In this document: positions 520 to 64,000 of the stretch, piece by piece
Numbering within the stretch: position 1 is the stretch's first letter
Layout of the letters: the number at the start of each line of letters is the position of its first letter
Virus record (IMG/VR): IMGVR_UViG_3300025678_000009
Coordinates: 17,698-81,697 of that record
Strand: one strand, 5' to 3'
Source of the DNA: a virus
Taxonomy: Duplodnaviria; Caudoviricetes
Length of the DNA stretch: 64,000 bases
The notes under the pieces: generated by a model
Told to the model about the DNA's origin: nothing
What the model saw: the letters and a program-made list of their open reading frames with translations, nothing else
Database searches by the model: none
Made by a program: the position numbers and the translations under genes

Positions 520-1316
520 CTTCTTTGTTTCGATTTGTGATATTGTAAGAGTGATTTAACCTCTTTTTTCATATATGTGACAGGATATAGAATTTCGTCT
601 GCCACATAATATTTTGAATTTTCAAATTGAATATGATATTTTGGCTCTGATGTAGGAGGTTCTTCATCCCACTTTTTAATTACTAAATGATTGATTGTTA
701 GATTTCTAGGAGTGAATCCATATTTTTCTAAAAAGAATGCATACATGGATAACTGAAGAGAATACTTCATGAAATTGCAATCCATGATGTGATTTAAAGG
801 AGCATTCAAAGTTGCATATTTTTGATTGCGAGAATCATAAAAACTTTCTAAATCAATTGTTTTACTAGTTTTATAATCTTCCAAATCAATATATCTTACT
901 CCATCAATTGTTTCTATGAAACATCTATCTGTCATTCCACAAGCCTGGAATTCATTATTATAAAGACAAAGTTCTGGATGAATACCATCTTCTAATTCTT
1001 CTAAACTCTTGATGGGTTTTATATCGCCATCAAACTCTGTAAAAAATACAGGTTTATCTTTAGAAGATTTATCTTCTTCTTCTTTTAGAGAATGAAATAA
1101 AGTACCCTTCTCTCTAGCAACTCTTCCTTCCTCTGCCCATTTCTTTTTTATATCTTCTGCTGTAAGAGGATTTTTTTTAGTAGAATGTTTTTTTGCATAT
1201 TTCTCTGCAATTTCATTCCAATCTTTTTCTGGTTCTACAATTTTAATTATAGAACTAAAAGACGTATAAGGCTTTTCATTTATTATATATTGATGTGTAG
1301 ATTGCTTAAAATACAT
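516..1316 (-). CDS. PD-(D/E)XK (Cas4-like) exonuclease
   Basis: GTLFH, HPE, CGMTD and LEDYKT motifs, plus YSLQLSMYA. Confidence 0.75.
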   Translation of the reverse strand: MYFKQSTHQYIINEKPYTSFSSIIKIVEPEKDWNEIAEKYAKKHSTKKNPLTAEDIKKKWAEEGRVAREKGTLFHSLKEEEDKSSKDKPVFFTEFDGDIKPIKSLEELEDGIHPELCLYNNEFQACGMTDRCFIETIDGVRYIDLEDYKTSKTIDLESFYDSRNQKYATLNAPLNHIMDCNFMKYSLQLSMYAFFLEKYGFTPRNLTINHLVIKKWDEEPPTSEPKYHIQFENSKYYVADEILYPVTYMKKEVKSLLQYHKSKQRR

Positions 1317-1318
1317 TT

Positions 1319-1555
1319 TTATATTATTTCCATTTTAAGTTTTTTATCATTTAATTTACCTATGAAGAATTTAGTTCCTTTAGTTAACTTTAAGTTAACA
1401 TCCCCTATAAATTCAATAACCTCTTCTAAAGGATTTCTTACAATCTTCGTTATAAAAATATCATGTTCTACTGAACCATATGTTATATAAACAAAAGATT
1501 TTTCAATTAAATGACATTTTTGAAGTTGTGAAATTACTCTAGCTTTCATTTTCAA
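1319..1555 (-). CDS. hypothetical protein
   Basis: ORF packed in a co-directional block. Confidence 0.6.
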   Translation of the reverse strand: MKMKARVISQLQKCHLIEKSFVYITYGSVEHDIFITKIVRNPLEEVIEFIGDVNLKLTKGTKFFIGKLNDKKLKMEII

Positions 1556-1928
1556 TTATTTTTTCAATTTCTATTTGCTCATCAGCAGTTGTAAGGGGTT
1601 GCCATTTTCCTATAGGACAAGCACATGATGTACATCTAAGTTTCATAGAATGTTCTCCTAATCCACATCCACAATGAATACATTTGTCATTATTTGAAGA
1701 TGTGATTTCATTAAACCATTGTTTAGTTTTTAATTTTTGAATTATTTCTGGAGCTTCTTCAAAAGATTTATTTTTTTGATTTTGATTAAACCAAATACAA
1801 TCTTTACATATAGTTTTCCTATATTTAGCTAAATCTTCAACATGCTCTTTTTTAAAAGCAAGATTTTTAATTCCTTCAGCTATCTGAGCTTTGTTTTTCC
1901 AGATTTCTGGTAATAATTCTCTTATCAT
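1539..1928 (-). CDS. Cys-rich putative Zn-binding protein
   Basis: CxxC, CxxCGC and CxxCxCPIGKW motifs. Confidence 0.65.
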   Translation of the reverse strand: MIRELLPEIWKNKAQIAEGIKNLAFKKEHVEDLAKYRKTICKDCIWFNQNQKNKSFEEAPEIIQKLKTKQWFNEITSSNNDKCIHCGCGLGEHSMKLRCTSCACPIGKWQPLTTADEQIEIEKIIENES

Positions 1929-2382
1929 AATTATCTTTTATTTCATTACATTTTTGATATAAATCTTTCCATTTACCTATTCTAGTGTTTATATTTTTCT
2001 TACTTGTAGGTGCATTTCTTTCATCATAACCTTCCAGATATTTTAATACGTCTTCAAAATGATTTATTTTTTGTTCAATTAAAAATTGAAGTTGTGTCAC
2101 TTTTTGAATAAGTATTTGATAATCAATTCTTTCATCTGGTAAAAAAGTATGGTCTGAAAATTTTAACAGATTATCCACTCTATTTTTTATTTCAAAATAA
2201 TCAAATCCAAAATATAACAACCCTAAAAATTTAAAATATGGTTTAGAAGGATTAAATAAAAAATTATTCATTTCTTTTTCGTATGATGCCCATATTCTAC
2301 CAATATCAGATTTTGTATAACCTTTTTCTATTAGTTCTGGAAAATCATCTAATGTATCTTTAGCTATTTGTAGTGCTTGCAC
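1876..2382 (-). CDS. hypothetical protein
   Basis: 168-aa ORF in operon. Confidence 0.65.
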   Translation of the reverse strand: MQALQIAKDTLDDFPELIEKGYTKSDIGRIWASYEKEMNNFLFNPSKPYFKFLGLLYFGFDYFEIKNRVDNLLKFSDHTFLPDERIDYQILIQKVTQLQFLIEQKINHFEDVLKYLEGYDERNAPTSKKNINTRIGKWKDLYQKCNEIKDNYDKRIITRNLEKQSSDS

Positions 2383-2683
2383 GCAATTTTAAATTTAATT
2401 TTATAGTTGTTTCACTACCTCTATCTAAAGGAGTTTTTAAATTTACAACATTTTCTTTTAAAATCCCTTCTTTTCTAAATTTAGATAAATGATTTTCAAC
2501 ACTTTGTAATGACTTGAAAATATTCCATTTAACTATTTCTTTCTTTATTTCTGGATTTAAACCTTTTAAATAAACAATACATAAAAGCTTTAGTTCATTA
2601 TCTGAAAGGTTATCAAATTGTTGTTTTAACTGATATGTTAAAAACTCAATTGGTGTATCAAAGTATTTATCTATTTCTATCAT
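2360..2683 (-). CDS. hypothetical protein, possibly winged-HTH
   Basis: 107-aa ORF with SLQSVENHLSKFRKEGIL helix pattern and upstream promoter box. Confidence 0.6.
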   Translation of the reverse strand: MIEIDKYFDTPIEFLTYQLKQQFDNLSDNELKLLCIVYLKGLNPEIKKEIVKWNIFKSLQSVENHLSKFRKEGILKENVVNLKTPLDRGSETTIKLNLKLRASTTNS

Positions 2684-2697
2684 CTCATTATAATATA

Positions 2698-2705
2698 CAA
2701 AGTTA
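2698..2705 (-). promoter_or_regulatory. Bacteroidota-type -7 promoter box TAACTTTG
   Basis: matches TAnnTTTG consensus just upstream of ORF 2683. Confidence 0.55.
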
Positions 2706-2713
2706 TTACTAAC

Positions 2714-3316
2714 TTACAAAGTTATTTCAAAAATATTTTTACAATCTTGCTGAAATTTTTTATCTTTTTTTAGTTTTAAAAATAATTCATTAATTCTTTT
2801 AGCTCCTAAAACCACATCAAATCCTTTCTCGACTAATTTCACTTCTTCTTTTGTTAGAAATTTTTTATAAACAGTCATTAGATGACTGAGATAATCTACA
2901 AAATCTGCATAATCATTTAAATTAGGGTCAGTATATTTTGTAAAAGCTAAAGTATTTATAGGATGATTATAATTAGACAAATGGATTATAGCCAAAGATT
3001 GTCGCATTATTACAATGTTTTTAGGGTTAAGACCCAAAAGAAGTAGTATTGCATTAGAGGAAAATGACCCTGTTACTACATATTTATAATTTAAAGGTCT
3101 GTTAGATAAAAAATCATACAATATAGCAGCAACACAATTTTGTCCTCCTGGGCTATCTATATAAATTACTCCTGCGTAGTCTCCTATTATAGGTAAATAC
3201 GCTCCTTCATCTGTATCTACAACTAAACTATTCTCATATTCTTCAATTTCTTCTATAAATTGCTGAATTTTACCCGACTCTCTGTTCATTTCAAAATCTA
3301 AATAAAATGTCTTCAT
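2714..3316 (-). CDS. divergent ClpP/crotonase-fold protease-like protein
   Basis: IYIDSPGG, GSFSSNAILL (Ser position) and IIHLS (His position) resemble ClpP motifs. Confidence 0.55.
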   Translation of the reverse strand: MKTFYLDFEMNRESGKIQQFIEEIEEYENSLVVDTDEGAYLPIIGDYAGVIYIDSPGGQNCVAAILYDFLSNRPLNYKYVVTGSFSSNAILLLLGLNPKNIVIMRQSLAIIHLSNYNHPINTLAFTKYTDPNLNDYADFVDYLSHLMTVYKKFLTKEEVKLVEKGFDVVLGAKRINELFLKLKKDKKFQQDCKNIFEITL

Positions 3317-3567
3317 AAGTTAAAAATTCTTTTTATTTCTTCAATATAAAATAAGTAATCTTTGTTATTTTCTTTGGTCTTTAAATATTCAAAAGCACTG
3401 TTTACATTTTTAAAATCAGAATGAGTAAAGTTAAGTATTTTATCTTTAGGGATAGCTACCTGTTTTACAACTTCCCCATCGTCTTCTAAAAGTTTAATTA
3501 TTAAAGCACCTTGTCCAAAAGAACTTCTATAATGGTCTACATTTGCTAACAATTTTTGTATACGCAT
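3313..3567 (-). CDS. hypothetical protein
   Basis: first ORF of leftward block, overlaps next gene by ATGA-type junction. Confidence 0.65.
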   Translation of the reverse strand: MRIQKLLANVDHYRSSFGQGALIIKLLEDDGEVVKQVAIPKDKILNFTHSDFKNVNSAFEYLKTKENNKDYLFYIEEIKRIFNL

Positions 3568-3649
3568 ATTTTATTTTTTTATAAAGGTAATAACTTTTTA
3601 AGTTATTGCAGTATTAATAAAACGTTAACAGTAAAATAGTTAAATTATA

Positions 3650-4279
3650 TTGATGAAGATGAATAACGTTTTAAGATTTATAGAAGACCTTGAAAACAAG
3701 TGTAAACAGTATAATATAAAATTATTTTTATATGATTTAAAATATATAGAAAGCGAAGGTGATAAATTTGGAGGTTGGTTTGACCCCGATAATAAAGAAT
3801 TACATTGTGCATTTCCTGATAAAATACAAACTAAATATGTAGAAGTTTTAATACATGAGAGTTGTCATATGGATCAATGGATAGAAAATACTAAATACTG
3901 GTCTATAGAAAGGGAAAATAATTCTCTTGATGAATTTTGGAAAATATTAAAAGGAATAAAAGTAAAAAATCTAAAATTTCATTTAAGAAATGTTCAAATG
4001 ATGGAAGCAGAATGTGAAAAAATGGCTATTGAAAAAATAAAATTTTATGACTTAGGTATAGATATTAATAAATATACTCAAAAAGCAAATTCTTACTTAT
4101 TATTTTATACCCTCCTAATAGAAACTAAAAAGTGGACAGATTATCCTCCTTATAAATATGGAGTAATTTGGAGAAAAATGCCAATTAAAATATTATCTAA
4201 ATTTCACCTAAATGATGATTTAAAATCACTTTATTTAAATAAATGCTATAAAAAGAAAAGTTTAAAAAACCTCCCCTAA
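3650..4279 (+). CDS. HExxH zinc metallopeptidase-like protein
   Basis: VLIHESCHMDQW and downstream MEAECE. Confidence 0.65.
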   Translation: MMKMNNVLRFIEDLENKCKQYNIKLFLYDLKYIESEGDKFGGWFDPDNKELHCAFPDKIQTKYVEVLIHESCHMDQWIENTKYWSIERENNSLDEFWKILKGIKVKNLKFHLRNVQMMEAECEKMAIEKIKFYDLGIDINKYTQKANSYLLFYTLLIETKKWTDYPPYKYGVIWRKMPIKILSKFHLNDDLKSLYLNKCYKKKSLKNLP

Positions 4280-4302
4280 AACTAGCATTAATAGGGGAGG
4301 TT
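4262..4302 (-). terminator. intrinsic terminator, U-tract on minus strand, possibly bidirectional
   Basis: AACCTCCCCTA / TAGGGGAGGTT stem next to an A-tract. Confidence 0.7.
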
Positions 4303-4623
4303 AGTGTAACTTCTAAAGTGCCTAGAAGTTTTTTTGACCTGTAGGTCATTAATATGATGCAAAAATACAATATCTTCCTATATAGCTCGTTAAGCTATTG
4401 TTAATTCTAAGTTAAACTTCCGATTATCAGGGTATCCAATATCCCACTAGCATTAGAAACATAGGCAAGCAAATAACCTTTATAAAAACCCAAAGTGCAT
4501 TTTCAAGATGACAGGAATAATCCTCACTCTACTAATCCACTTTTAGAATCTCCTGTCGCTACGTCTGTATTATACATTAGGCTAGTACTAACTTCAGTGG
4601 TGCTACCAGGGTGCTTCATTTCA

Positions 4624-4631
4624 CAAAGATA
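4624..4631 (-). promoter_or_regulatory. -7 promoter box TATCTTTG
   Basis: TAnnTTTG consensus, reading leftward into a region without long ORFs. Confidence 0.55.
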
Positions 4632-4983
4632 TGAATTAGAATTAGGATTCCAAATTAAGTTTATGTAAATTAAATTGATGAGAAAGATAAAAATAATATT
4701 AGAGGTAATAACATATATAGCAATATTGTTCCTGATATGGCTATTATTAATCTTTGACCCTCATACTGTTCAACACTAAACTTTCTCTTATTGCGAAATA
4801 TAAAAATTTTTTATTTTCAAAATTTTTATTGTGAATTTCTATGTTAAAAAATTTTTATTTTTTTTTCAAATTTTGATGTTGTAGCTCATATTTACTGACC
4901 CAACGCCAAGAAAGATACCCCTCCTTCATTTTAGCGGGGGATAACCTCCATTGATTTATTATTCATCTTAAAAATTTACAGAC

Positions 4984-5325
4984 ATGCAAAAATTAACATT
5001 TGACAAATCGGCTAAAACCATCGAAAGAACGCATTCCATTACAGGTAAAGTTCTCTATGCTGAAGATTACACTGCAAGCAACAACGTTCCTGGTGTATCT
5101 ATCCAGTTGGAAGGTTGTCCTTATAACCTTAGAGTTCTGAAGGGTTCTATTAAGGGTGCAGGCAATGCTTCCACAGTTTTGGGTTGTACAGTTACCTTGA
5201 CAGGTATCATGCGTGAATATAACGGTAAGCAGTATTTCAATCCAAAAGACCTTACTGTTGACAAGAAATCAGGTATTGCGACCATTGCAGGTGCAGGTGT
5301 TGCTTATGCAGGTAGTTTAGATTAA
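4984..5325 (+). CDS. hypothetical protein, possible OB-fold
   Basis: beta-rich with MREYNGKQYFN motif; followed by terminator. Confidence 0.65.
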   Translation: MQKLTFDKSAKTIERTHSITGKVLYAEDYTASNNVPGVSIQLEGCPYNLRVLKGSIKGAGNASTVLGCTVTLTGIMREYNGKQYFNPKDLTVDKKSGIATIAGAGVAYAGSLD

Positions 5326-5363
5326 TTGCTTGCTTGTTTGGCTTGTCGCATGGTTTTCATATC

Positions 5364-5409
5364 AGACACTGCACATCCTTAATTGGGTGTGTGGTGTTTT
5401 TCTTTTTTT
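5364..5409 (+). terminator. intrinsic terminator
   Basis: GCACATCC/GGGTGTGT stem and long T-tract. Confidence 0.7.
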
Positions 5410-5432
5410 CTAAATCTCTCTAAATCAATATT

Positions 5433-28286: not shown

Positions 28287-28320
28287 ATAAAGGACAAATT
28301 TTATTAAATTTGTCCTTTAT
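28287..28320. terminator. 15-bp perfect hairpin
   Basis: ATAAAGGACAAATTT / AAATTTGTCCTTTAT. Confidence 0.55.
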
Positions 28321-28345
28321 TATATTTTTTATAAAAATTAAACTT

Positions 28346-30358
28346 ATGAATTATATAATAACAAAAACACCTGAATATTTTAAAAAAATAAGTGATTATA
28401 ATTTTTGTCTTTTAGAAGATATGATATTACCTAATATTATAGCTATAGACACAGAAACTACTGATTTAAAACCTATATTAGGAGATATATTCGCAATTCA
28501 AATAGGTACAGGTACTAATAATTATTTAATACATTGTTATAATGATAATTTTAAACCAGAAGAAATATTTCCTTTTATAAAAGATAAAATATTAATAGGT
28601 CACAATATTACATTCGATTTAGGATTTTTTTATAAATATGGATTTTATCCTAATAAGGTAAAAGATACTTTCATAGCATCTAAAATTCTTTACAATGGAT
28701 TAAAAGAATATAGACATGATTTTGGTTCAGTATTTGAGAGAGAATTAAATATAAATTATGATAAATCCGAACAAAAAAATATTAATAAAATTAAATTATC
28801 TACTACTAAATCTATTCAATATTGTTTTAATGATGTAGATAAATTAATTGAATTACATAATTTTCTAGAAAAAAAGATAATTGATAAAGGTTATTTTGAA
28901 ACTTATAATTTACATTGTGAATATATTAAAGCATTAGCTTATATGGAACAATGTGGAGTTCCTTTATCTAAAGATAAATGGCAACAAAAGATTAATTCAG
29001 ATAAAATAATTTTAGAAGAAAAAGAAAAAATAGTAAGTAATTATATATTAAATAATCTTCCTCAATTTCAAGAAAAACAATTAAATTTATTTAATTCTGA
29101 ACCTAAATTAAATATAGATTTATCTTCTCCTATACAAATGCTTTTTGTTTTCCAATCTCTTAAAATAAATTGTATAGATGATGAAAATAAAAATTCTATT
29201 TCAGAAAATGTAATAAGAAAAACTAAACATGAATTTGTAGATATTTGGTTAGAATATCAATCTGCTAAACATGATGTTACAACTTTTGGTGAAAATATTT
29301 TTGAAAAAGTGATTGATGAAAGAATTTATACAAGTTATAATCCTATATTAGATACTGCAAGAATTTCTTCAAGGAAAGGAGATGTAAATACACTTAATTT
29401 ACCTGCAAATCAACGTACAAGAGAATGTATAGAAGCTAAACCTGGATTTAAAATGATTGTAGCTGATTATGAAGGACAGGAAACAAGAGTAGGAGCAGAT
29501 ATTACAGGAGATGAAGCTATGATAGATAGTATTATTAATGGATCTGATTTACATTGTGCTTTTGCAAAAGTTTTGTTTCCTGAACTTCAATTTTTAAGTG
29601 ATGAAGAAATTATTAAAAATCATAAAGAAAAAAGAACAGCAGCTAAAGCTCCCAGATTTGCTTTTGCCTATGGAGCAAATGCTTATACTATTCATGTAAA
29701 TGAAGGGATTCCTCTTAAAGAAGCTCAAAAAATAGAAGATGCCTATAAACAATTACATTCTGGTATTTATAAATATGGAGATAAAAAATTAAAAGAAGCT
29801 ATTGAATTAGGTTATATAGAATCTACAATGGGATTTAAATTACATCTTTTTGATTTTCAAAGATTTAAAAATCTTCAAAATAAAATAAGTCAATTTTCTA
29901 AAAAAGAATGGGAATCTTATAAAAAAGGTAAGGAAGAATATCAAAAATTAGAAAAAGCTAAAGAACAAAGAAAACTCTATAATATAAATGATGAAAATTC
30001 TTATGATTTTTACTTAAAAAATAGAAGTTTAATTTCTAAATTTTTTAAATTAAAATCTCAATATTATAGACTTTGTTTAAATAATCCTACACAAACAACT
30101 GCTGCTCATCAAACTAAATTAGCAGCTTGTATGCTTTTTGATTTTATAAAAGAAAATAATCATTTAAATAAAGCAAAGATTTGTATAATACCTCATGATG
30201 AATTTGTAATGGAAGTTCAAGAAGATTTATCAGAGTTATATAAAGAAAAATTAGGATATTTTATGAGAGAAGCAGGTAATAAATTAATTAAAAATCCATT
30301 AATAAAAATGAGTGCAGAAGCTAATATAGGTAATAATTGGTATTCTGCAAAAGGATAA
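28346..30358 (+). CDS. polA: family A DNA polymerase with 3'-5' exonuclease
   Basis: IDTET; motif A ADYEGQETR; motif B RTAAKAPRFAFAYG; motif C PHDE. Confidence 0.92.
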   Translation: MNYIITKTPEYFKKISDYNFCLLEDMILPNIIAIDTETTDLKPILGDIFAIQIGTGTNNYLIHCYNDNFKPEEIFPFIKDKILIGHNITFDLGFFYKYGFYPNKVKDTFIASKILYNGLKEYRHDFGSVFERELNINYDKSEQKNINKIKLSTTKSIQYCFNDVDKLIELHNFLEKKIIDKGYFETYNLHCEYIKALAYMEQCGVPLSKDKWQQKINSDKIILEEKEKIVSNYILNNLPQFQEKQLNLFNSEPKLNIDLSSPIQMLFVFQSLKINCIDDENKNSISENVIRKTKHEFVDIWLEYQSAKHDVTTFGENIFEKVIDERIYTSYNPILDTARISSRKGDVNTLNLPANQRTRECIEAKPGFKMIVADYEGQETRVGADITGDEAMIDSIINGSDLHCAFAKVLFPELQFLSDEEIIKNHKEKRTAAKAPRFAFAYGANAYTIHVNEGIPLKEAQKIEDAYKQLHSGIYKYGDKKLKEAIELGYIESTMGFKLHLFDFQRFKNLQNKISQFSKKEWESYKKGKEEYQKLEKAKEQRKLYNINDENSYDFYLKNRSLISKFFKLKSQYYRLCLNNPTQTTAAHQTKLAACMLFDFIKENNHLNKAKICIIPHDEFVMEVQEDLSELYKEKLGYFMREAGNKLIKNPLIKMSAEANIGNNWYSAKG

Positions 30359-53029: not shown

Positions 53030-54085
53030 ATGAAAATTTGTGGAATATATAAAATAACTTCTCCTTCTGGTCGAATTTATATTGGACAAAGTATTGATAT
53101 ACAAAAAAGATGGAATCAATATAAATATAATAGTTGTAAATCCCAAACCAAATTATATAACTCACTCAAAAAGTATGGATGGGAAAATCATAAATTTGAA
53201 ATAATAGAAGAATGTAGTAAAGAAGAACTTTCCAACAGAGAAAAGTTCTGGGAAAGTACTATAGAGAAAAAATGTCTACTAAACATTATAGAATGTGGTA
53301 AAACTCCTCCTAAAAATAACAAACAATCATTTATTGAAAGATATGGGGCAAAAGAAGGTATTAAAAAATGGAATAGTTATATAAACAATAAATCTATAAA
53401 GGCTTCTGGTAAAATAGCATGGAATAAAGGAAAGACTGGAAACCAAAGTCATATGTATGGAATTATAGTTAAAGAAAATTCCAAAATAAAACAAGTACAA
53501 AATTCAAAATATAATAAATTATATCAATATGATAAAGAAGGAAATTTTATTAAAGAGTGGGAAAGAATATCAATTGCAAAAAAGGAATTGAATATCTCTA
53601 TAAACTGCACAACTAATTTAGAAAAAATAAAATATTCTGGAGGGTATATATGGTTTTCAGAAAAACATAAATGCTTAATAGTAGATTTAAAGAAGTTTAT
53701 TGATTTATCTAAAATAAAACCTAAAAGAGTTTTTAATTCCTATATTCTAAGTGAAATGCAAAACAGAATGAGAAAAATTGCGAAAAATAAAGAATACCAT
53801 GAAAAAGCTATCTTTAATAGGGAAAGTAATTTATCTAATGAAGATAAACTTAGAAGAATAGAATTTGCAAAAACTCTATACTTAAAAAGTAATCTACAGA
53901 AATCTATTTTACAGTATGATTTAGATGGTAATTTTATCAAAAAATGGTCTTCTATAACTGAGGCTGCTAAAACTATTGATAGTATAAATTTTAAATCTAT
54001 TATACCAAAAATAATAATGGTAGCTAAAGGTAAAAGAAATAAAACGAGAGGTTTTAAATGGTGCTATGAAAAAATGGAAATATAA
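53030..54085 (+). CDS. GIY-YIG homing endonuclease with NUMOD repeats
   Basis: GIYKITSPSGRIYIGQS and two LYQYDxxGNFIKxW modules. Confidence 0.9.
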   Translation: MKICGIYKITSPSGRIYIGQSIDIQKRWNQYKYNSCKSQTKLYNSLKKYGWENHKFEIIEECSKEELSNREKFWESTIEKKCLLNIIECGKTPPKNNKQSFIERYGAKEGIKKWNSYINNKSIKASGKIAWNKGKTGNQSHMYGIIVKENSKIKQVQNSKYNKLYQYDKEGNFIKEWERISIAKKELNISINCTTNLEKIKYSGGYIWFSEKHKCLIVDLKKFIDLSKIKPKRVFNSYILSEMQNRMRKIAKNKEYHEKAIFNRESNLSNEDKLRRIEFAKTLYLKSNLQKSILQYDLDGNFIKKWSSITEAAKTIDSINFKSIIPKIIMVAKGKRNKTRGFKWCYEKMEI

Positions 54086-59190: not shown

Positions 59191-59781
59191 ATGAATAACG
59201 AATTATTAAATTACTTTAAAGGGGACGAATTAGCAGCTAATGTATTTTTAAGTAAATACGCACAAGAAGGAGATATAACTCCAGATGAATTATGGAAATT
59301 GTGTGAAGATAATGCACATGCGATTTCAAATTATGGTAGAGTAATGAATATAGGAACTTTACATAAAAAAGATAAAAGAGGTAGAAGTGGTAAAGTGAAA
59401 CCTTTTATATTAAAAAATAGATTGAGTTCAAATAGTTATTATATTACTTATAATAATAATTTTATACATAGATTAGTAGCAGAAGCTTTTTTAAATAACT
59501 TAAATAATTACAAAGAAGTTAACCACATTGATGGAAATAAATTAAATAATCATGTTAATAATCTTGAGTGGTGTACAAGAAGTGAGAATATAAAACATAG
59601 TTATGATAAAAAATTAAGAATTAAATCTTCCGAAGAATCGTCAAAATTGACTACAAAAGACATAAACGAAATTAGAAAATTGTATTCCAGTGGTGATTAT
59701 TTACAAAAAGATTTAGGTATAAAATTCGGAATAAATCAACAACAAATTTCAAAAATAATAAATTACAAACAATGGAAGTAA
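59191..59781 (+). CDS. HNH homing endonuclease fused to a captured RNR N-terminus
   Basis: first ~35 aa resemble the RNR start; then IHRLVAEAF, VNHIDGNKLNN and HTH. Confidence 0.85.
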   Translation: MNNELLNYFKGDELAANVFLSKYAQEGDITPDELWKLCEDNAHAISNYGRVMNIGTLHKKDKRGRSGKVKPFILKNRLSSNSYYITYNNNFIHRLVAEAFLNNLNNYKEVNHIDGNKLNNHVNNLEWCTRSENIKHSYDKKLRIKSSEESSKLTTKDINEIRKLYSSGDYLQKDLGIKFGINQQQISKIINYKQWK

Positions 59782-62456
59782 GAACAGATGAAAATTTAAT
59801 GTTTCCTAATGATGAATTAGCAAGGTCAGTTTGGAAATCAAAGTATGCTCAAGAGAACGAAACTCATTATGACCAAATGCATAAAAGAATGGCAAAAGAG
59901 TTTGCAAGAGTTGAAACTAATTATATTTTAAAATTAGAAGATTCAGCTAAAGAAGTTCCTTTACTTTCAGAAGAAGGTAAGAAATATTACCAATATGGGC
60001 AACACCTTCTCTATGAAAGTAGAGATAAGGGTAAGAGTGTTTCTGAATTAGTACAAGAAAGAGTCTATAATCTCTTTAAAGATTTTAAATACATTATTCC
60101 TCAAGGTTCTATTATGTCTAATCTTGGTAATAAAGCAGTTACATCATTATCAAATTGCTTTGTTGTAGGACAACCTACTGATAGTTATGGTGGTATTTGT
60201 AAGAAAGATGAAGAGATGGCTCAACTTATGAAAAGAAGAGGAGGTGTAGGATTAGATATTTCTACTCTTAGACCCGCTACTACTAAAGTTAGTAATGCTG
60301 CTAAATCATCTACAGGTGCTGTTTCATTTATGCATAGATTTTCTAATACAACAAGAGAGGTTGCACAAGATGGAAGACGTGGAGCATTAATGTTATCTAT
60401 TGATATTAATCATCCAGATGTAATGGATTTCATTAAAATTAAAAGAGATTTAACTAAAGTTACAGGAGCAAACATTTCTATAAAACTTAATAAAGAGTTT
60501 ATGGAAGCTGTAGAAAAAGATGAAGATTATATACTTAGATACCCTTGTGATTTAGATTTATCTAAATTTACAAAAGAATATGTAAAAGCTAATTATAATG
60601 AGCTCCATTATATAGAAGATCATACAAATAATAATGAAGTTTGTTATGTAAAAACCATTAAAGCAAAAGAATATTGGGATGAGATTATTAAATCTGCTCA
60701 TGGTGTAGCTGAACCAGGATTAATGTTTTGGGATAACATGATTGATTATTCTCCTGATGGAGTGTATGAACAATTCAAAGCTATTACAACTAATCCATGT
60801 TTTAGCTACGAAACTAAAATATTAACTGCTTATGGATACGAAAGAATTGGAGATTTAGAAGGACAAGATATTGATTTTATAAATAAAGATGGTGAAGTTG
60901 TATCTGGAACAGTATTTAAATCAGGAGAAAAAGCTACTTACACATTAACTCTAAGTAATAAAGAAACAATTGTAACTACAATTGATCATAGATTTATGCT
61001 AACAGACGGTTCTGAAAAACAGGCTCAATATCTATCTAAAGAAGATAGATTAATGCCTTTTTTTATTTTGAATGATAAACTTAATGAATTTGTTAAATAT
61101 GGATTTATTCAAGGAGATGGATGTACAGGAAGACTAAATTCTCCTAATCATTTAGGTATAGAAGTTAATATTGGAGAAAAAGATGGAGATATTGCTAATT
61201 TATTTAATATAAAAGATATTGGAAAAAATTATTTAGGGGGATTTAATGAAATTTTAAAAGAGTTAGGATTCAGTTCTTCTTCTTTACCAAATAGAACTTT
61301 ACCGAAATCTTTTAATGATTGGTCTTCTGAAAACAAATTAATGTTTTTAAAAGGGTTGTGGTCTGCCAATGGAAGTATTATAAAAGGGCATCGGATATCT
61401 TTTAAATCTACTTGTAAAGAACTGATAATAGAATTAACTAAAGTATTAAAGGAATTTGAAATTGATAGTTACTTTACTACAAATAGGGCTAAAGAAGTAA
61501 AATTCTCCAATGGGATTTATTTATGTAAAGAGTCTTATGATTTAAACATATCTAAATATAATTCTATCCTTAATTTTGCAGAAAAAATTAGTTTTGTACA
61601 TAATTATAAACAGGATTCTTTAAAAGAACTTATACTATTGAAAGCTCCAAAAGTGTTATCTGCAAAAAATACAGAAGTTAGACCAGTTTATGATTTTACT
61701 TTAAATGATAATACTCATTGGGGTGTTATTCAAGGAGTTATAGCTCATAACTGCTCGGAGATTGGTATGCAGGAATATGATGCTTGTAGATTAATTGCTA
61801 TAAATTTATTCAGCTTTGTAGATAATACATTTACACCTGAAGCTACATTTGATTTTGAGAAATTCTATCAAATTAATTATGAAGCAATGAGATTAAGTGA
61901 CAATTTAATTGATTTGGAATTAGAACATATTGATAGAATTCTTAGAAAAATAGCTGAAGACCCCGAACCTTTTGAAGATAGAAGAACAGAATTTGAACTT
62001 TGGGAAAAGATTAAAAAGACTGCTGCTGCAAGTAGAAGAACAGGATTAGGATTTACTGCATTAGGAGATACTTTAGCAGCATTAGGTTTAAAATATGATT
62101 CGGATGAAGCCTTAGAGGTTATTGAAAAAATAATGTCTAAAAAGATGGAATCTGAATTAGATTGCACTATTGATTTAGCTGTTTTAAGAGGTAGTTTTAT
62201 TGGAGCTGATACTAAATTAGAGTTTGAAGATGATGGTTTAGGTAATTATACGGGTAAAAATAAATTTTATCAATTTTTAGCTACTGAATTTCCAGAGCAA
62301 ACTGAAAGAATGATTAAATTTAATAGAAGAAACGTGAGTTTTTCAACCGTTGCTCCTACAGGTACAGTAAGTATTATGACTCAAACTACTTCAGGCATTG
62401 AACCTTTGTTTATGCCTTTCTATATGAGAAGAGTTAAAATTAATCCAAATGAATAA
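59772..62456 (+). CDS. nrdJ: class II (B12-dependent) ribonucleotide reductase, N-terminal fragment, intein-containing
   Basis: SLSNCFV, RRGGVG, GRRGALM, TNP|CSEI, RRTGLG and TVAPTGT; ends at INPNE-stop. Confidence 0.9.
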   Translation: MEVRTDENLMFPNDELARSVWKSKYAQENETHYDQMHKRMAKEFARVETNYILKLEDSAKEVPLLSEEGKKYYQYGQHLLYESRDKGKSVSELVQERVYNLFKDFKYIIPQGSIMSNLGNKAVTSLSNCFVVGQPTDSYGGICKKDEEMAQLMKRRGGVGLDISTLRPATTKVSNAAKSSTGAVSFMHRFSNTTREVAQDGRRGALMLSIDINHPDVMDFIKIKRDLTKVTGANISIKLNKEFMEAVEKDEDYILRYPCDLDLSKFTKEYVKANYNELHYIEDHTNNNEVCYVKTIKAKEYWDEIIKSAHGVAEPGLMFWDNMIDYSPDGVYEQFKAITTNPCFSYETKILTAYGYERIGDLEGQDIDFINKDGEVVSGTVFKSGEKATYTLTLSNKETIVTTIDHRFMLTDGSEKQAQYLSKEDRLMPFFILNDKLNEFVKYGFIQGDGCTGRLNSPNHLGIEVNIGEKDGDIANLFNIKDIGKNYLGGFNEILKELGFSSSSLPNRTLPKSFNDWSSENKLMFLKGLWSANGSIIKGHRISFKSTCKELIIELTKVLKEFEIDSYFTTNRAKEVKFSNGIYLCKESYDLNISKYNSILNFAEKISFVHNYKQDSLKELILLKAPKVLSAKNTEVRPVYDFTLNDNTHWGVIQGVIAHNCSEIGMQEYDACRLIAINLFSFVDNTFTPEATFDFEKFYQINYEAMRLSDNLIDLELEHIDRILRKIAEDPEPFEDRRTEFELWEKIKKTAAASRRTGLGFTALGDTLAALGLKYDSDEALEVIEKIMSKKMESELDCTIDLAVLRGSFIGADTKLEFEDDGLGNYTGKNKFYQFLATEFPEQTERMIKFNRRNVSFSTVAPTGTVSIMTQTTSGIEPLFMPFYMRRVKINPNE
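60798..61751 (+). mobile_element. intein (318 aa) with LAGLIDADG domain
   Basis: CFSYET start, IAHN|C end, GFIQGDG and FLKGLWSANG; inserted just before the catalytic Cys of NPCxE. Confidence 0.92.
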
Positions 62457-62505
62457 AAAGTTAAAATAATTTTGTAATCCAATTTCTTTTCAGTAATTTT
62501 ATCTG

Positions 62506-63090
62506 ATGGACAGATATATACCAAGAATAGGAGATTCTTTTGGAGATTATAAAGTAATTTCAGAAGAAATATTTAGAGGAAACTCCAATAAGAAAAAAAT
62601 TAAAGTTCAATGTAAATGTGGAACTGAAAAGATTTTAGATTATGATTATTTAAAAAATTACTTGAATCCTATATGCAGTAAATGTGCTAAAAAAGAACAA
62701 CATAGAAAAATAATAGACAATAGAAAAAAGAATGGTACTTTACACAAAGGAATAGGCTGTTTGAATAAAACTTTTATTAATTCTATTAAACAATCTGCTA
62801 TTAGAAGAGGATATAAATGGTTGATAACTATAGAAGAGCTATGGTATCTATATTTAAATCAAGATAAAAAATGTAAATTAAGTGGTTTAGAAATTAATTT
62901 CTCAGAATACTTAAAAAAAGGAAGATATGACTTTAAAAATGCAAATGCTTCTTTAGATAGAATAGATTCTAGTAAAGACTATACATTAGATAATGTACAA
63001 TGGGTGCATAAAGATGTAAATCGCATGAAAAACATATTTAGTCAAGAATATTTTATTAAAATTTGTAAAAATGTCGCAGAAAAAAATTGA
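62506..63090 (+). CDS. His-Me finger/HNH-like homing endonuclease splitting RNR
   Basis: CxCG N-terminal module and SLDRIDSSKDYTLDNVQWVHKDVNRMK. Confidence 0.85.
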   Translation: MDRYIPRIGDSFGDYKVISEEIFRGNSNKKKIKVQCKCGTEKILDYDYLKNYLNPICSKCAKKEQHRKIIDNRKKNGTLHKGIGCLNKTFINSIKQSAIRRGYKWLITIEELWYLYLNQDKKCKLSGLEINFSEYLKKGRYDFKNANASLDRIDSSKDYTLDNVQWVHKDVNRMKNIFSQEYFIKICKNVAEKN

Positions 63091-64000
63091 TTTTATTGAT
63101 CAAAATGGAGATGCTTGGATTGAATATCCAATTTTGCATCCTAAATTTAAAGAATGGATTTTTAGGTCTCAAAATTGGAATCCTAATGAGCCTGAGTATA
63201 TAGATTCTTTATCTAAAGAAGAACTTCAAGATTTATTTGAAAAATCTCCTTGGTATGGTTCTACAGCTAATGATATTGACTGGGTTAAACGAGTTGAAAT
63301 TCAAGGTATCATACAAAAATATATTACTCACTCTATTTCTTCAACAATTAATCTCCCTGAAAATGTAAAAGAAGAAGAAGTTTCTAAAATCTATATGGAA
63401 TCTTGGAAGAAAGGTCTCAAAGGAATTACTGTTTATAGAGATGGTAGTAGAAGTGGCGTATTAGTGTCTACAGATACTAAGAAGAAGGAAGAATTTGAAT
63501 ACCACGATGCTCCTAAAAGACCTTCTGAACTTGCTTGTGATATACACCATCCAACAATCAAGAATACTAAATATACTGTAATTGTAGGTCTTTTACATAA
63601 TAAACCTTATGAAGTATTTGCAATTCCTTTTGAAGTTGCTAAGGGATATAAGAATGGTTTTTTATCTAAATCTAAATCAGGAGTTTATAATTTGATTGCA
63701 TCTCTTGATGAAAAATCAACAATCCATACAGATGTTACTGGTAATATGAGCGATAGTGAAGCAATAATAACTAGATTAATAAGTACAGCACTCAGACACG
63801 GAAGTTCAATAGATTTCATTGTAGAACAATTAAAAAAATCACATGGGGATATTACTTCTTATACTAAAATTTTAGCAAGAGTATTATCTAAATATGTAAA
63901 ACCAAAAAAATTAAAAGAATCTTGCCCAGAGTGCGGACAGGAAACTATGATGAGAGAAGAAGGATGTACAAAATGCACCTCTTGCGGATATTCTAAATGT
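63071..64000 (+). CDS. nrdJ: class II RNR C-terminal fragment, open to the window end
   Basis: translated by hand: MSQKKIDFIDQNGDAW...QKYITHSISSTINLP...KGITVYRDGSR...CPECG...CTSCGYSKC; no stop before 64000. Confidence 0.9.
   Translation, partial: MSQKKIDFIDQNGDAWIEYPILHPKFKEWIFRSQNWNPNEPEYIDSLSKEELQDLFEKSPWYGSTANDIDWVKRVEIQGIIQKYITHSISSTINLPENVKEEEVSKIYMESWKKGLKGITVYRDGSRSGVLVSTDTKKKEEFEYHDAPKRPSELACDIHHPTIKNTKYTVIVGLLHNKPYEVFAIPFEVAKGYKNGFLSKSKSGVYNLIASLDEKSTIHTDVTGNMSDSEAIITRLISTALRHGSSIDFIVEQLKKSHGDITSYTKILARVLSKYVKPKKLKESCPECGQETMMREEGCTKCTSCGYSKC

Follow-up and report, generated by a model that had tools for sequence, protein, structure and literature searches.

How can a class II ribonucleotide reductase (RNR) be made when an endonuclease gene lies inside the part of its gene that encodes the catalytic barrel? 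This question is raised by the nrdJ locus at the end of the IMG/VR phage record IMGVR_UViG_3300025678_000009. The window (WIN) is the 3' 64 kb of this 81.7-kb record, and its end is also the contig end. A near-identity DNA search with the window in phage GenBank records gave no match, and just one RNR locus was found in the whole record. Related loci and contigs carry L-numbers here, while P0001-P0120 are the related proteins listed by a length-restricted search. In the window, the reductase gene stops within the barrel, is followed by an endonuclease gene and resumes from a start codon of its own. The split is a gene arrangement rather than a statistical signal. We suggest, with good confidence, that it represents a genuine and evolutionarily maintained two-gene class II RNR, made by a naked HNH homing endonuclease, whose two products are predicted to assemble into an active enzyme.

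A reductase gene in two pieces

The features of a class II NrdJ are all present (barrel domain, Cys pair, N-x-C-x-E thiyl loop and C-terminal Cys-rich zinc finger). The best matches of the reductase in the PDB are the B12-dependent RNR structures of T. maritima, 1xje and 1xjk, and nrdJ homologues in crAss-like phages are annotated as B12-dependent RNR. The split gene is assigned to the class II RNR, NrdJ, with the use of adenosylcobalamin (AdoCbl) predicted from homology.

The upstream gene, nrdJ-a, reads ...RRVKINPNE at its C-terminus and then TAA (62456). After the AT-rich spacer comes the endonuclease open reading frame (ORF), and the ATG of nrdJ-b (63071) lies 20 nt inside the 3' end of this ORF (stop at 63090). 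The original prediction for this DNA had placed the stop, a spacer of about 50 AT-rich nt (49 nt, 62457-62505) and the overlapping in-frame restart in the same way. The window ends before the stop codon of nrdJ-b, but a near-identical contig that continues it (L055) has TAA immediately after the base matching 64000, and nrdJ-b is therefore complete at 310 aa.

The Pfam barrel domain PF02867 is divided between the two products, fragment a matching positions 1-415 of the 523-position profile and fragment b matching 423-523. Fragment a carries the motifs SLSNCF, NP/C-S-E, YDACRL, APTGT and SGIEP, including the Cys pair and the thiyl-radical N-P-C-x-E loop, and all three active-site cysteines remain in it. 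Fragment b begins with the second strand of the interrupted hairpin and continues with the barrel strands that bear ISSTIN and TVYRDG, which are the last two. A TSCPD domain and, at the C-terminus, the Cys cluster of a Cys-rich zinc finger are also in this fragment. This partition agrees with the original prediction, to which one feature must be added: the NPCxE motif of fragment a is itself interrupted by an intein.

The comparison with eight unsplit homologues revealed one residue gained at the break and zero lost. Across this point the unsplit proteins read ...YYMRRKKVNPND-EDSR-VDFTDQNGD..., while in the window fragment a ends with ...RRVKINPNE and fragment b starts with MSQKK-IDFIDQNGD, the split NPNE/MSQKK-IDF corresponding to the unsplit NPND-EDSR-VDF. 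The two pieces are colinear with the unsplit reference (residues up to 563, then from 564) and nothing is missing. The first 4 residues of fragment b are non-homologous, its match to unsplit NrdJ beginning at residue 5, and the unique ends at the break amount to 1 and 4 residues only. In the AlphaFold model of the unsplit homologue L008 (predicted local distance difference test, pLDDT, 86), strands 517-524 and 542-549 are the arms of a beta-hairpin, and the break is in the loop that connects them. The hairpin follows APTGT/SGxEP, with the last two barrel strands still to come, and the length of its loop is variable among homologues. On the T. maritima NrdJ, the break lies between residues ~516 and ~546, with fragment a aligned up to ~516.

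Table 1. Features of the interrupted nrdJ locus and its upstream neighbour, in window coordinates.
Feature	Position	Strand	Description
nrdJ-a	59772..62456	+	576 extein residues (N-terminal part of class II RNR) plus in-frame intein; Pfam, alignment
Spacer	62457..62505	+	49 nt, AT-rich, from the nrdJ-a stop to the endonuclease start
HNH endonuclease gene	62506..63090	+	194 aa; PHROG, AlphaFold/Foldseek, family-invariant residues
nrdJ-b	63071..64000	+	310 aa, own ATG (MSQKKIDF...); stop just beyond the window end
Intein, LAGLIDADG	60798..61751	+	318 aa; between NP and the catalytic Cys of nrdJ-a
Upstream HNH_3 endonuclease gene	59191..59781	+	Pfam HNH_3; PHROG 59, E 3e-39

Among the related proteins listed, P0004 (MSQKKIDF), P0009 (MSQKTTDF) and P0102 (..MSQKEISF) start like nrdJ-b of the window, and contigs were found for two of the three, P0009 being the exception. 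The 1.5-kb contig L139 (from SRR32315879) shares with the window the ATGTCGCAG start and the 20-nt overlap. Identity between the two is 70% in fragment b, and the last 38 residues of the endonuclease agree in 37 positions. In the 113.8-kb contig L138 (from SRR29078115) the gene order is nrdJ-a, peptide deformylase, endonuclease and nrdJ-b, with identities to the window of 56% for fragment a, 52% for fragment b and 72% for the endonuclease. Its nrdJ-a ends with RRVKINANAT and its endonuclease with ...VAERN. The peptide deformylase gene (4881-5411) begins before the nrdJ-a stop, in an overlap with it, and its presence between the two halves is incompatible with a simple intron in that phage. As the arrangement is reproduced in these independent assemblies, it is no assembly artefact.

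Every fragment seen in these three lineages keeps all its conserved motifs. The ratio of nonsynonymous to synonymous substitution rates (dN/dS) of fragment b between the window and L139 is 0.27, and the dN of the endonuclease between the window and L138 is 0.24 with synonymous sites saturated; for the same reason, the dN/dS of the fragments against L138 was unusable. These data indicate an old split, with purifying selection acting ever since on the two halves as well as on the endonuclease. As at least two further, clearly diverged phages retain this cut, the reductase most likely works as two chains.

One alternative is that the insertion killed nrdJ, the two ORFs being decaying remnants and the deoxynucleoside triphosphates coming from the host or from another phage RNR. 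We consider this improbable. The record is incomplete, nrdJ is damaged in some relatives (an internal deletion or frameshift in L051), and nrdA genes of Campylobacter phages have been described as degenerating under their load of mobile elements (PMC3653736). However, both halves are full-length and stop-free, and every motif is in place in all three lineages even though their endonucleases are down to 72% identity, with synonymous sites saturated. The break adds one residue and deletes zero, the precise start codon of nrdJ-b is conserved, and the dN/dS is 0.27 or lower.

Some points weigh against a maintained two-chain enzyme. Fragment a of L139 is unseen in a contig of only 1.5 kb, and the MSQK-type split has just 3 or 4 instances among the 120 relatives listed. 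Further splits of this type were found in none of 54 nrdJ loci of IMG/VR and in none of 80 loci of JGI metagenomes, where the best endonuclease identity was 46%; the 78 endonuclease loci from IMG/VR also gave none. The record is ~42% complete, so a second RNR could be encoded elsewhere in the phage, and this, or reliance on the host RNR, would relax selection. If homing drives the split allele, its persistence in several lineages is partly selfish drive, and some of the divergence of the fragments may predate the split. The tails are essential in the split RNR of Aeromonas phage Aeh1 (see below) and here there are just 1 + 4 residues; the assembly mechanism would therefore have to differ. Finally, expression, splicing and activity are all deduced from sequence.

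Some candidates for further splits had another origin. Most of the short NrdJ-b-like proteins, starting with MPFYMRR, MRRKKVNP or MTQTTSG, resembled further splits but were rejected: in the contexts inspected (L140, L141 and L143), they are the second exon of a gene with a group I intron at the APTG site. Metagenome catalogues contain many NrdJ C-terminal proteins of 310-350 aa ('RNR barrel + TSCPD'), most of which begin at an internal Met. From the three contexts examined, many of these ~310-350-aa proteins would be exon-2 miscalls of intron-split genes and not subunits, and true two-gene alleles would be rare among them.

Other disruptions of nrdJ are seen in related loci. The crAss-like phage cr108_1 (MT774385.1, L002) has two annotated B12-dependent RNR coding sequences (311 and 523 aa) in 1301-4909, with a 308-aa hypothetical protein between them; this is a different, N-terminal site, and our intron model R1 (described below) reaches just 14 bits there. 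In L053:2252-6768, 1.9 kb of DNA with a 408-aa ORF separates the parts of nrdJ near reference residue 645. The upstream ORF continues into non-RNR sequence, and the locus may be a split-intein fractured gene or another intron. In L051:4261-6749, nrdJ has an internal deletion of ~70 residues and a frame change (about reference residues 633-703). The deletion removes the ISSTIN/TVYRDG region, and this may be a dead allele.

The search for splicing at the break

As judged from the searches for introns and inteins, no RNA or protein splicing rejoins the halves. Rfam (E<=10) detected no ribozyme in the 801 nt around the gap and was also negative on 5.5 kb; on pieces of the same size, its Intron_gpI model scored 54 bits in L007 and 37.7 bits in L058, and it scored 39.5 bits in L118. 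The group I core motifs of the relatives are absent from the gap. A custom covariance model, R1, was built from the introns of six relatives and run with filters off. It stayed at or below 7 bits within 62457-63090 and did not exceed 12 bits over the whole of 58.5-64 kb. True introns scored 95-193 bits with it, and introns that had no part in its training, found beside further members of the endonuclease family (L059, L063, L064 and L100), scored 45-71 bits. The positive controls for the intron tools were L007, L058, L118, L140, L141 and L143, the ribozyme core being common to L140, L141 and L143. A large-region Rfam scan of four relatives had overlooked two true introns (L007 and L058). Since negatives from long inputs are thus unreliable, the decisive scans were redone on pieces of ~1 kb. 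The reading of the original prediction that the inserted gene is apparently intron-less has therefore withstood Rfam, the motif search and the custom model, all of which are positive on relatives.

Cryptic RNA splicing would require the 634-nt insert to be a group I or other intron whose core is hidden in the endonuclease ORF or is too divergent; it would join ...KINPN to KKIDF... and restore a single reading frame. We regard this as very unlikely. Some observations speak for it: only ~35 codons upstream of the break, at APTG(S/T), the nrdJ genes of L007, L058, L140, L141 and L143 have introns that house endonucleases of this family, with the endonuclease ORF overlapping part of the ribozyme. 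In our reading, the U at 62450 and the G at 63079 could serve for an in-frame join that matches the one of L058 in length, and Rfam filters can fail, as mentioned above. Nevertheless, the small-region Rfam scan, the motif search and the filters-off family model were all negative with positive controls, and the non-coding part is only 49 nt without significant structure (fold z-score +0.62). The endonuclease of the window lacks the ribozyme-encoded tail of the intron-borne proteins and overlaps nrdJ-b. The ATG of nrdJ-b is conserved in the window, L138 and L139. In L058, by contrast, the exons join exactly to APTGSV/SILTQ and the second one is without a start codon. In L138, a whole peptide deformylase gene also stands between the halves.

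Translational bypass, frameshifting and read-through were dropped, as a whole conserved gene occupies the 614-nt gap. For the spacer, a regulatory hairpin or a promoter of the kind that mobE of Aeh1 has is not supported. The z-score is the one given above, and the spacer contains one TAATTTTG box at 62467-62474, but the Bacteroidota-type TAnnTTTG box has no enrichment in the window.

Trans-splicing of the two chains by split-intein halves at the break can be set aside in practice on the strength of the alignment. Such fractured genes, in which the two intein halves flank a free-standing endonuclease gene, are known for NrdJ and NrdA (PMC2677866), and nrdJ-a already hosts a contiguous intein, but fragment a stops 4 residues past the last homologous strand and fragment b starts 4 before homology resumes, which leaves no extra residues on either side and no room for an N-intein of ~100 aa or a C-intein of ~35 aa, no Cys/Ser/Thr +1 nucleophile context is present, and the known fractured NrdJ site is elsewhere, at the thiyl-radical Cys (PMC2677866).

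The contiguous intein (Cys1 ... His-Asn / Cys+1) is supported by the Pfam LAGLIDADG_3 and Intein_splicing matches and by a gap in the alignment to an unsplit homologue. In 11 of 54 related loci from IMG/VR there is an in-frame insertion at this site. The intein must be removed before NrdJ-a can be active.

The endonuclease and its relatives

The 194-aa ORF has no match in Pfam, but it falls in the endonuclease/HNH families of PHROG (E 1e-16). Its AlphaFold model (pLDDT 85.6) has PacI (3ldy) as best Foldseek match (probability 1.00, E 2e-3), followed by HNH domains of Cas9, Gme and Cap5. The layout is a Cys-rich ribbon at the N-terminus and an HNH-type beta-beta-alpha nuclease at the C-terminus. 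All 21 family-invariant residues are present, and the conserved nuclease block ASLDRIDS...NVQWVHKDVN.MK is kept. Together, these results identify the ORF as an HNH-type endonuclease, so that the original prediction of an endonuclease gene was correct. In the whole family an Arg replaces the first His of the classical HNH motif, which makes the catalytic detail uncertain.

Sister endonucleases in the nrdJ introns of related phages belong to the same protein family, with 39-44% identity. The intron-borne proteins end with ...NHANQQPS, encoded by the P4-P6 region of the ribozyme, and this tail is absent from the endonuclease of the window and from the free-standing one of L060. In the protein tree, the endonucleases of the window and L138 form a clade (100/100), which joins the nrdJ intron endonucleases and L060 weakly (84/79). 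A passage from intron-borne to naked, or the reverse, would be compatible with this tree, from which the direction cannot be called.

Paralogues of the family are free-standing directly downstream of nrdJ in L060, L080, L146, L167, L055 and L138, and upstream of it in L083. In L060, L080, L083, L146 and L167, the nrdJ flanked by the free-standing copy is unsplit. In L055 (207-944) and L138 (6946-7518), the copy is a second paralogous endonuclease directly downstream of nrdJ-b.

The insertion site of the window is empty in more than 50 homologues. Between the window and L139, DNA identity is 92-97% where the endonuclease gene ends and in the ~80 nt with which nrdJ-b begins, and falls to 55-57% at the 3' end; the identities of successive protein bins are 86, 84, 72 and 54%, against ~47, 75, 55 and 48% in unsplit controls. 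Such a gradient is absent in the unsplit controls and in L138. It resembles a co-conversion tract, a footprint like that left by homing.

We propose that the coding sequence of nrdJ was invaded directly by a free-standing gene for an HNH homing endonuclease. The insertion point would be the loop of a surface beta-hairpin between APTGT/SGIEP and the last two of the ten strands of the catalytic barrel. The insertion would have supplied a stop codon to the upstream part and an ATG to the downstream part, turning the locus into three genes (nrdJ-a, endonuclease and nrdJ-b), the last two probably being translationally coupled through their 20-nt overlap. NrdJ-a would first excise its own intein. 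This chain would provide the cysteines and the thiyl-radical loop and, as judged by homology, the sites for effectors and cofactor. NrdJ-b would contribute the reducing tail with its many Cys residues, one strand of the hairpin and two of the barrel (ISSTIN and TVYRDG). Both chains would then assemble non-covalently into an active enzyme, as NrdA-a and NrdA-b of Aeh1 do. The endonuclease would cut unsplit nrdJ alleles of co-infecting relatives, and it could be copied, together with the split, into the cut alleles by recombinational repair.

Comparison with other divided reductases

The Aeh1 RNR is the textbook case of an essential enzyme surviving the invasion of a selfish gene without an intron or intein, and to our knowledge this class Ia enzyme is the only characterised RNR that is fragmented by an endonuclease gene and free of splicing. 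Phage RNR genes are also home to group I intron endonucleases, such as I-TevIII in nrdB and I-TevII in nrdD of T4. The Aeh1 genes nrdA-a / mobE / nrdA-b have been described as 'genes in pieces' (Crona et al. 2010, PMC3045599, where Friedrich et al. 2007 is cited). There, the insertion lies between two adjacent barrel strands, the split enzyme is fully active and its unique tails are essential (PMC3045599).

The precedent put forward in the original prediction is thus real and closely parallel. In both phages a free-standing endonuclease gene lies inside the gene of the RNR large subunit, within the 10-stranded barrel and without an intron or intein; it overlaps the downstream fragment, and essential elements are distributed over two polypeptides. 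The relatives of Aeh1 have mobE free-standing between nrdA and nrdB, while those of the window have copies downstream of nrdJ, in the loci listed above. The locus of the window joins the nrdA/mobE kind of RNR genes in pieces. The differences are that the RNR of the window is class II (AdoCbl, with no NrdB partner) and not class Ia, and that its break is later in the barrel, with the three active-site cysteines in fragment a, whereas Cys-462 of Aeh1 is in fragment b. The tails have 1 + 4 residues here and are essential in Aeh1. The endonuclease family is probably a different one. The split of the window type occurs in at least three diverged lineages, one of them with an extra gene between the halves, and its two-chain activity is a prediction.

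Class II RNRs made from two consecutive genes are known from P. aeruginosa, other Proteobacteria and the Thermus phage phiYS40. In P. aeruginosa, NrdJa (734 aa) has the whole catalytic machinery and the cofactor site, and NrdJb (229 aa) serves only in thiol-disulfide exchange (PMC4520616); the nrdJ genes of phiYS40 are split by a 12-nt gap (PMC3653736). As in the window, the products must associate and the C-terminal piece bears the Cys-rich reducing tail. The NrdJa/NrdJb genes, however, have no endonuclease between them, and the cut of the window is ~110 residues upstream of theirs, inside the barrel (Pfam 415/423 of 523), so that NrdJ-b adds two barrel strands. The proteobacterial split comes after a full barrel, with NrdJb as a redox tail only, while here profile positions 423-523 are in fragment b. 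The statement in the original prediction that the natural NrdJa/NrdJb split is further C-terminal is borne out by the P. aeruginosa NrdJa, which has all the catalytic and cofactor-binding elements (PMC4520616).

The intron-encoded nrdJ endonucleases (L007, L058, L118, L140, L141 and L143) share with the one of the window the protein family, the host gene and the conserved region targeted, from APTG(S/T) to SGxEP. They have, however, a detectable ribozyme that restores the frame and an exon 2 without a start codon, whereas no ribozyme was found for the element of the window, which has its own stop/start pair and a different insertion point. The 'fractured genes' (Dassa et al. 2009, PMC2677866) also include an NrdJ gene in two pieces with an endonuclease between them, but with split-intein halves and a break at the catalytic Cys (PMC2677866); the window has no such halves and another site. 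A survey of phage RNRs from 2013 described two split nrdJ cases, including phiYS40, and none of the window type (PMC3653736). Our searches of the open-access literature brought up no class II RNR in which an endonuclease gene without an intron divides the barrel.

With an independent second example, from the B12-dependent class, the Aeh1 solution would no longer stand alone. This example would be distinctive in its break point, its near lack of tails and its persistence in several diverged phages. One endonuclease family is met in one gene in three states, namely intron-borne, free-standing beside the gene and naked inside it, and the benefit of an intron to a homing endonuclease therefore becomes directly testable. 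Tentatively, these elements could be combined, although we lean slightly against the combination as a whole: a clade of nrdJ endonucleases that normally dwell in group I introns would have lost the ribozyme and would sit naked in coding sequence; a cut in the hairpin loop would let the chains re-zip by strand complementation without tails of the Aeh1 type; and the endonuclease would home into intact nrdJ alleles and turn them into two-gene alleles. A transmissible split would explain the same junction in phages with reductases that are just 52-70% identical.

The locus has been invaded more than once. Between 59.2 and 64.0 kb, the single class II RNR gene bears three selfish elements, and this phage has at least 4 genes of the homing-endonuclease type. 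The upstream HNH_3 gene is part of the same invaded locus and not of the split. No intron signal was found in its region (59191-59781) by Rfam on 5.5 kb or by the custom intron model. In a comparison by eye, its first ~33 codons correspond to the RNR N-terminus of another nrdJ lineage, resembling the nrdJ starts of L051, L053 and Lbo-JY46, while the own start of nrdJ-a resembles that of L007. This endonuclease looks like an immigrant that carries a piece of its previous host gene.

Three further features were recorded. A second group I intron core (R1, 66.7 bits) is found in L007 at 700-882, ~3 kb upstream of nrdJ. Elsewhere in the window, the ORF at 53030-54085 (351 aa) encodes a GIY-YIG endonuclease with a NUMOD1 domain, and a family A DNA polymerase is encoded at 28310-30358.

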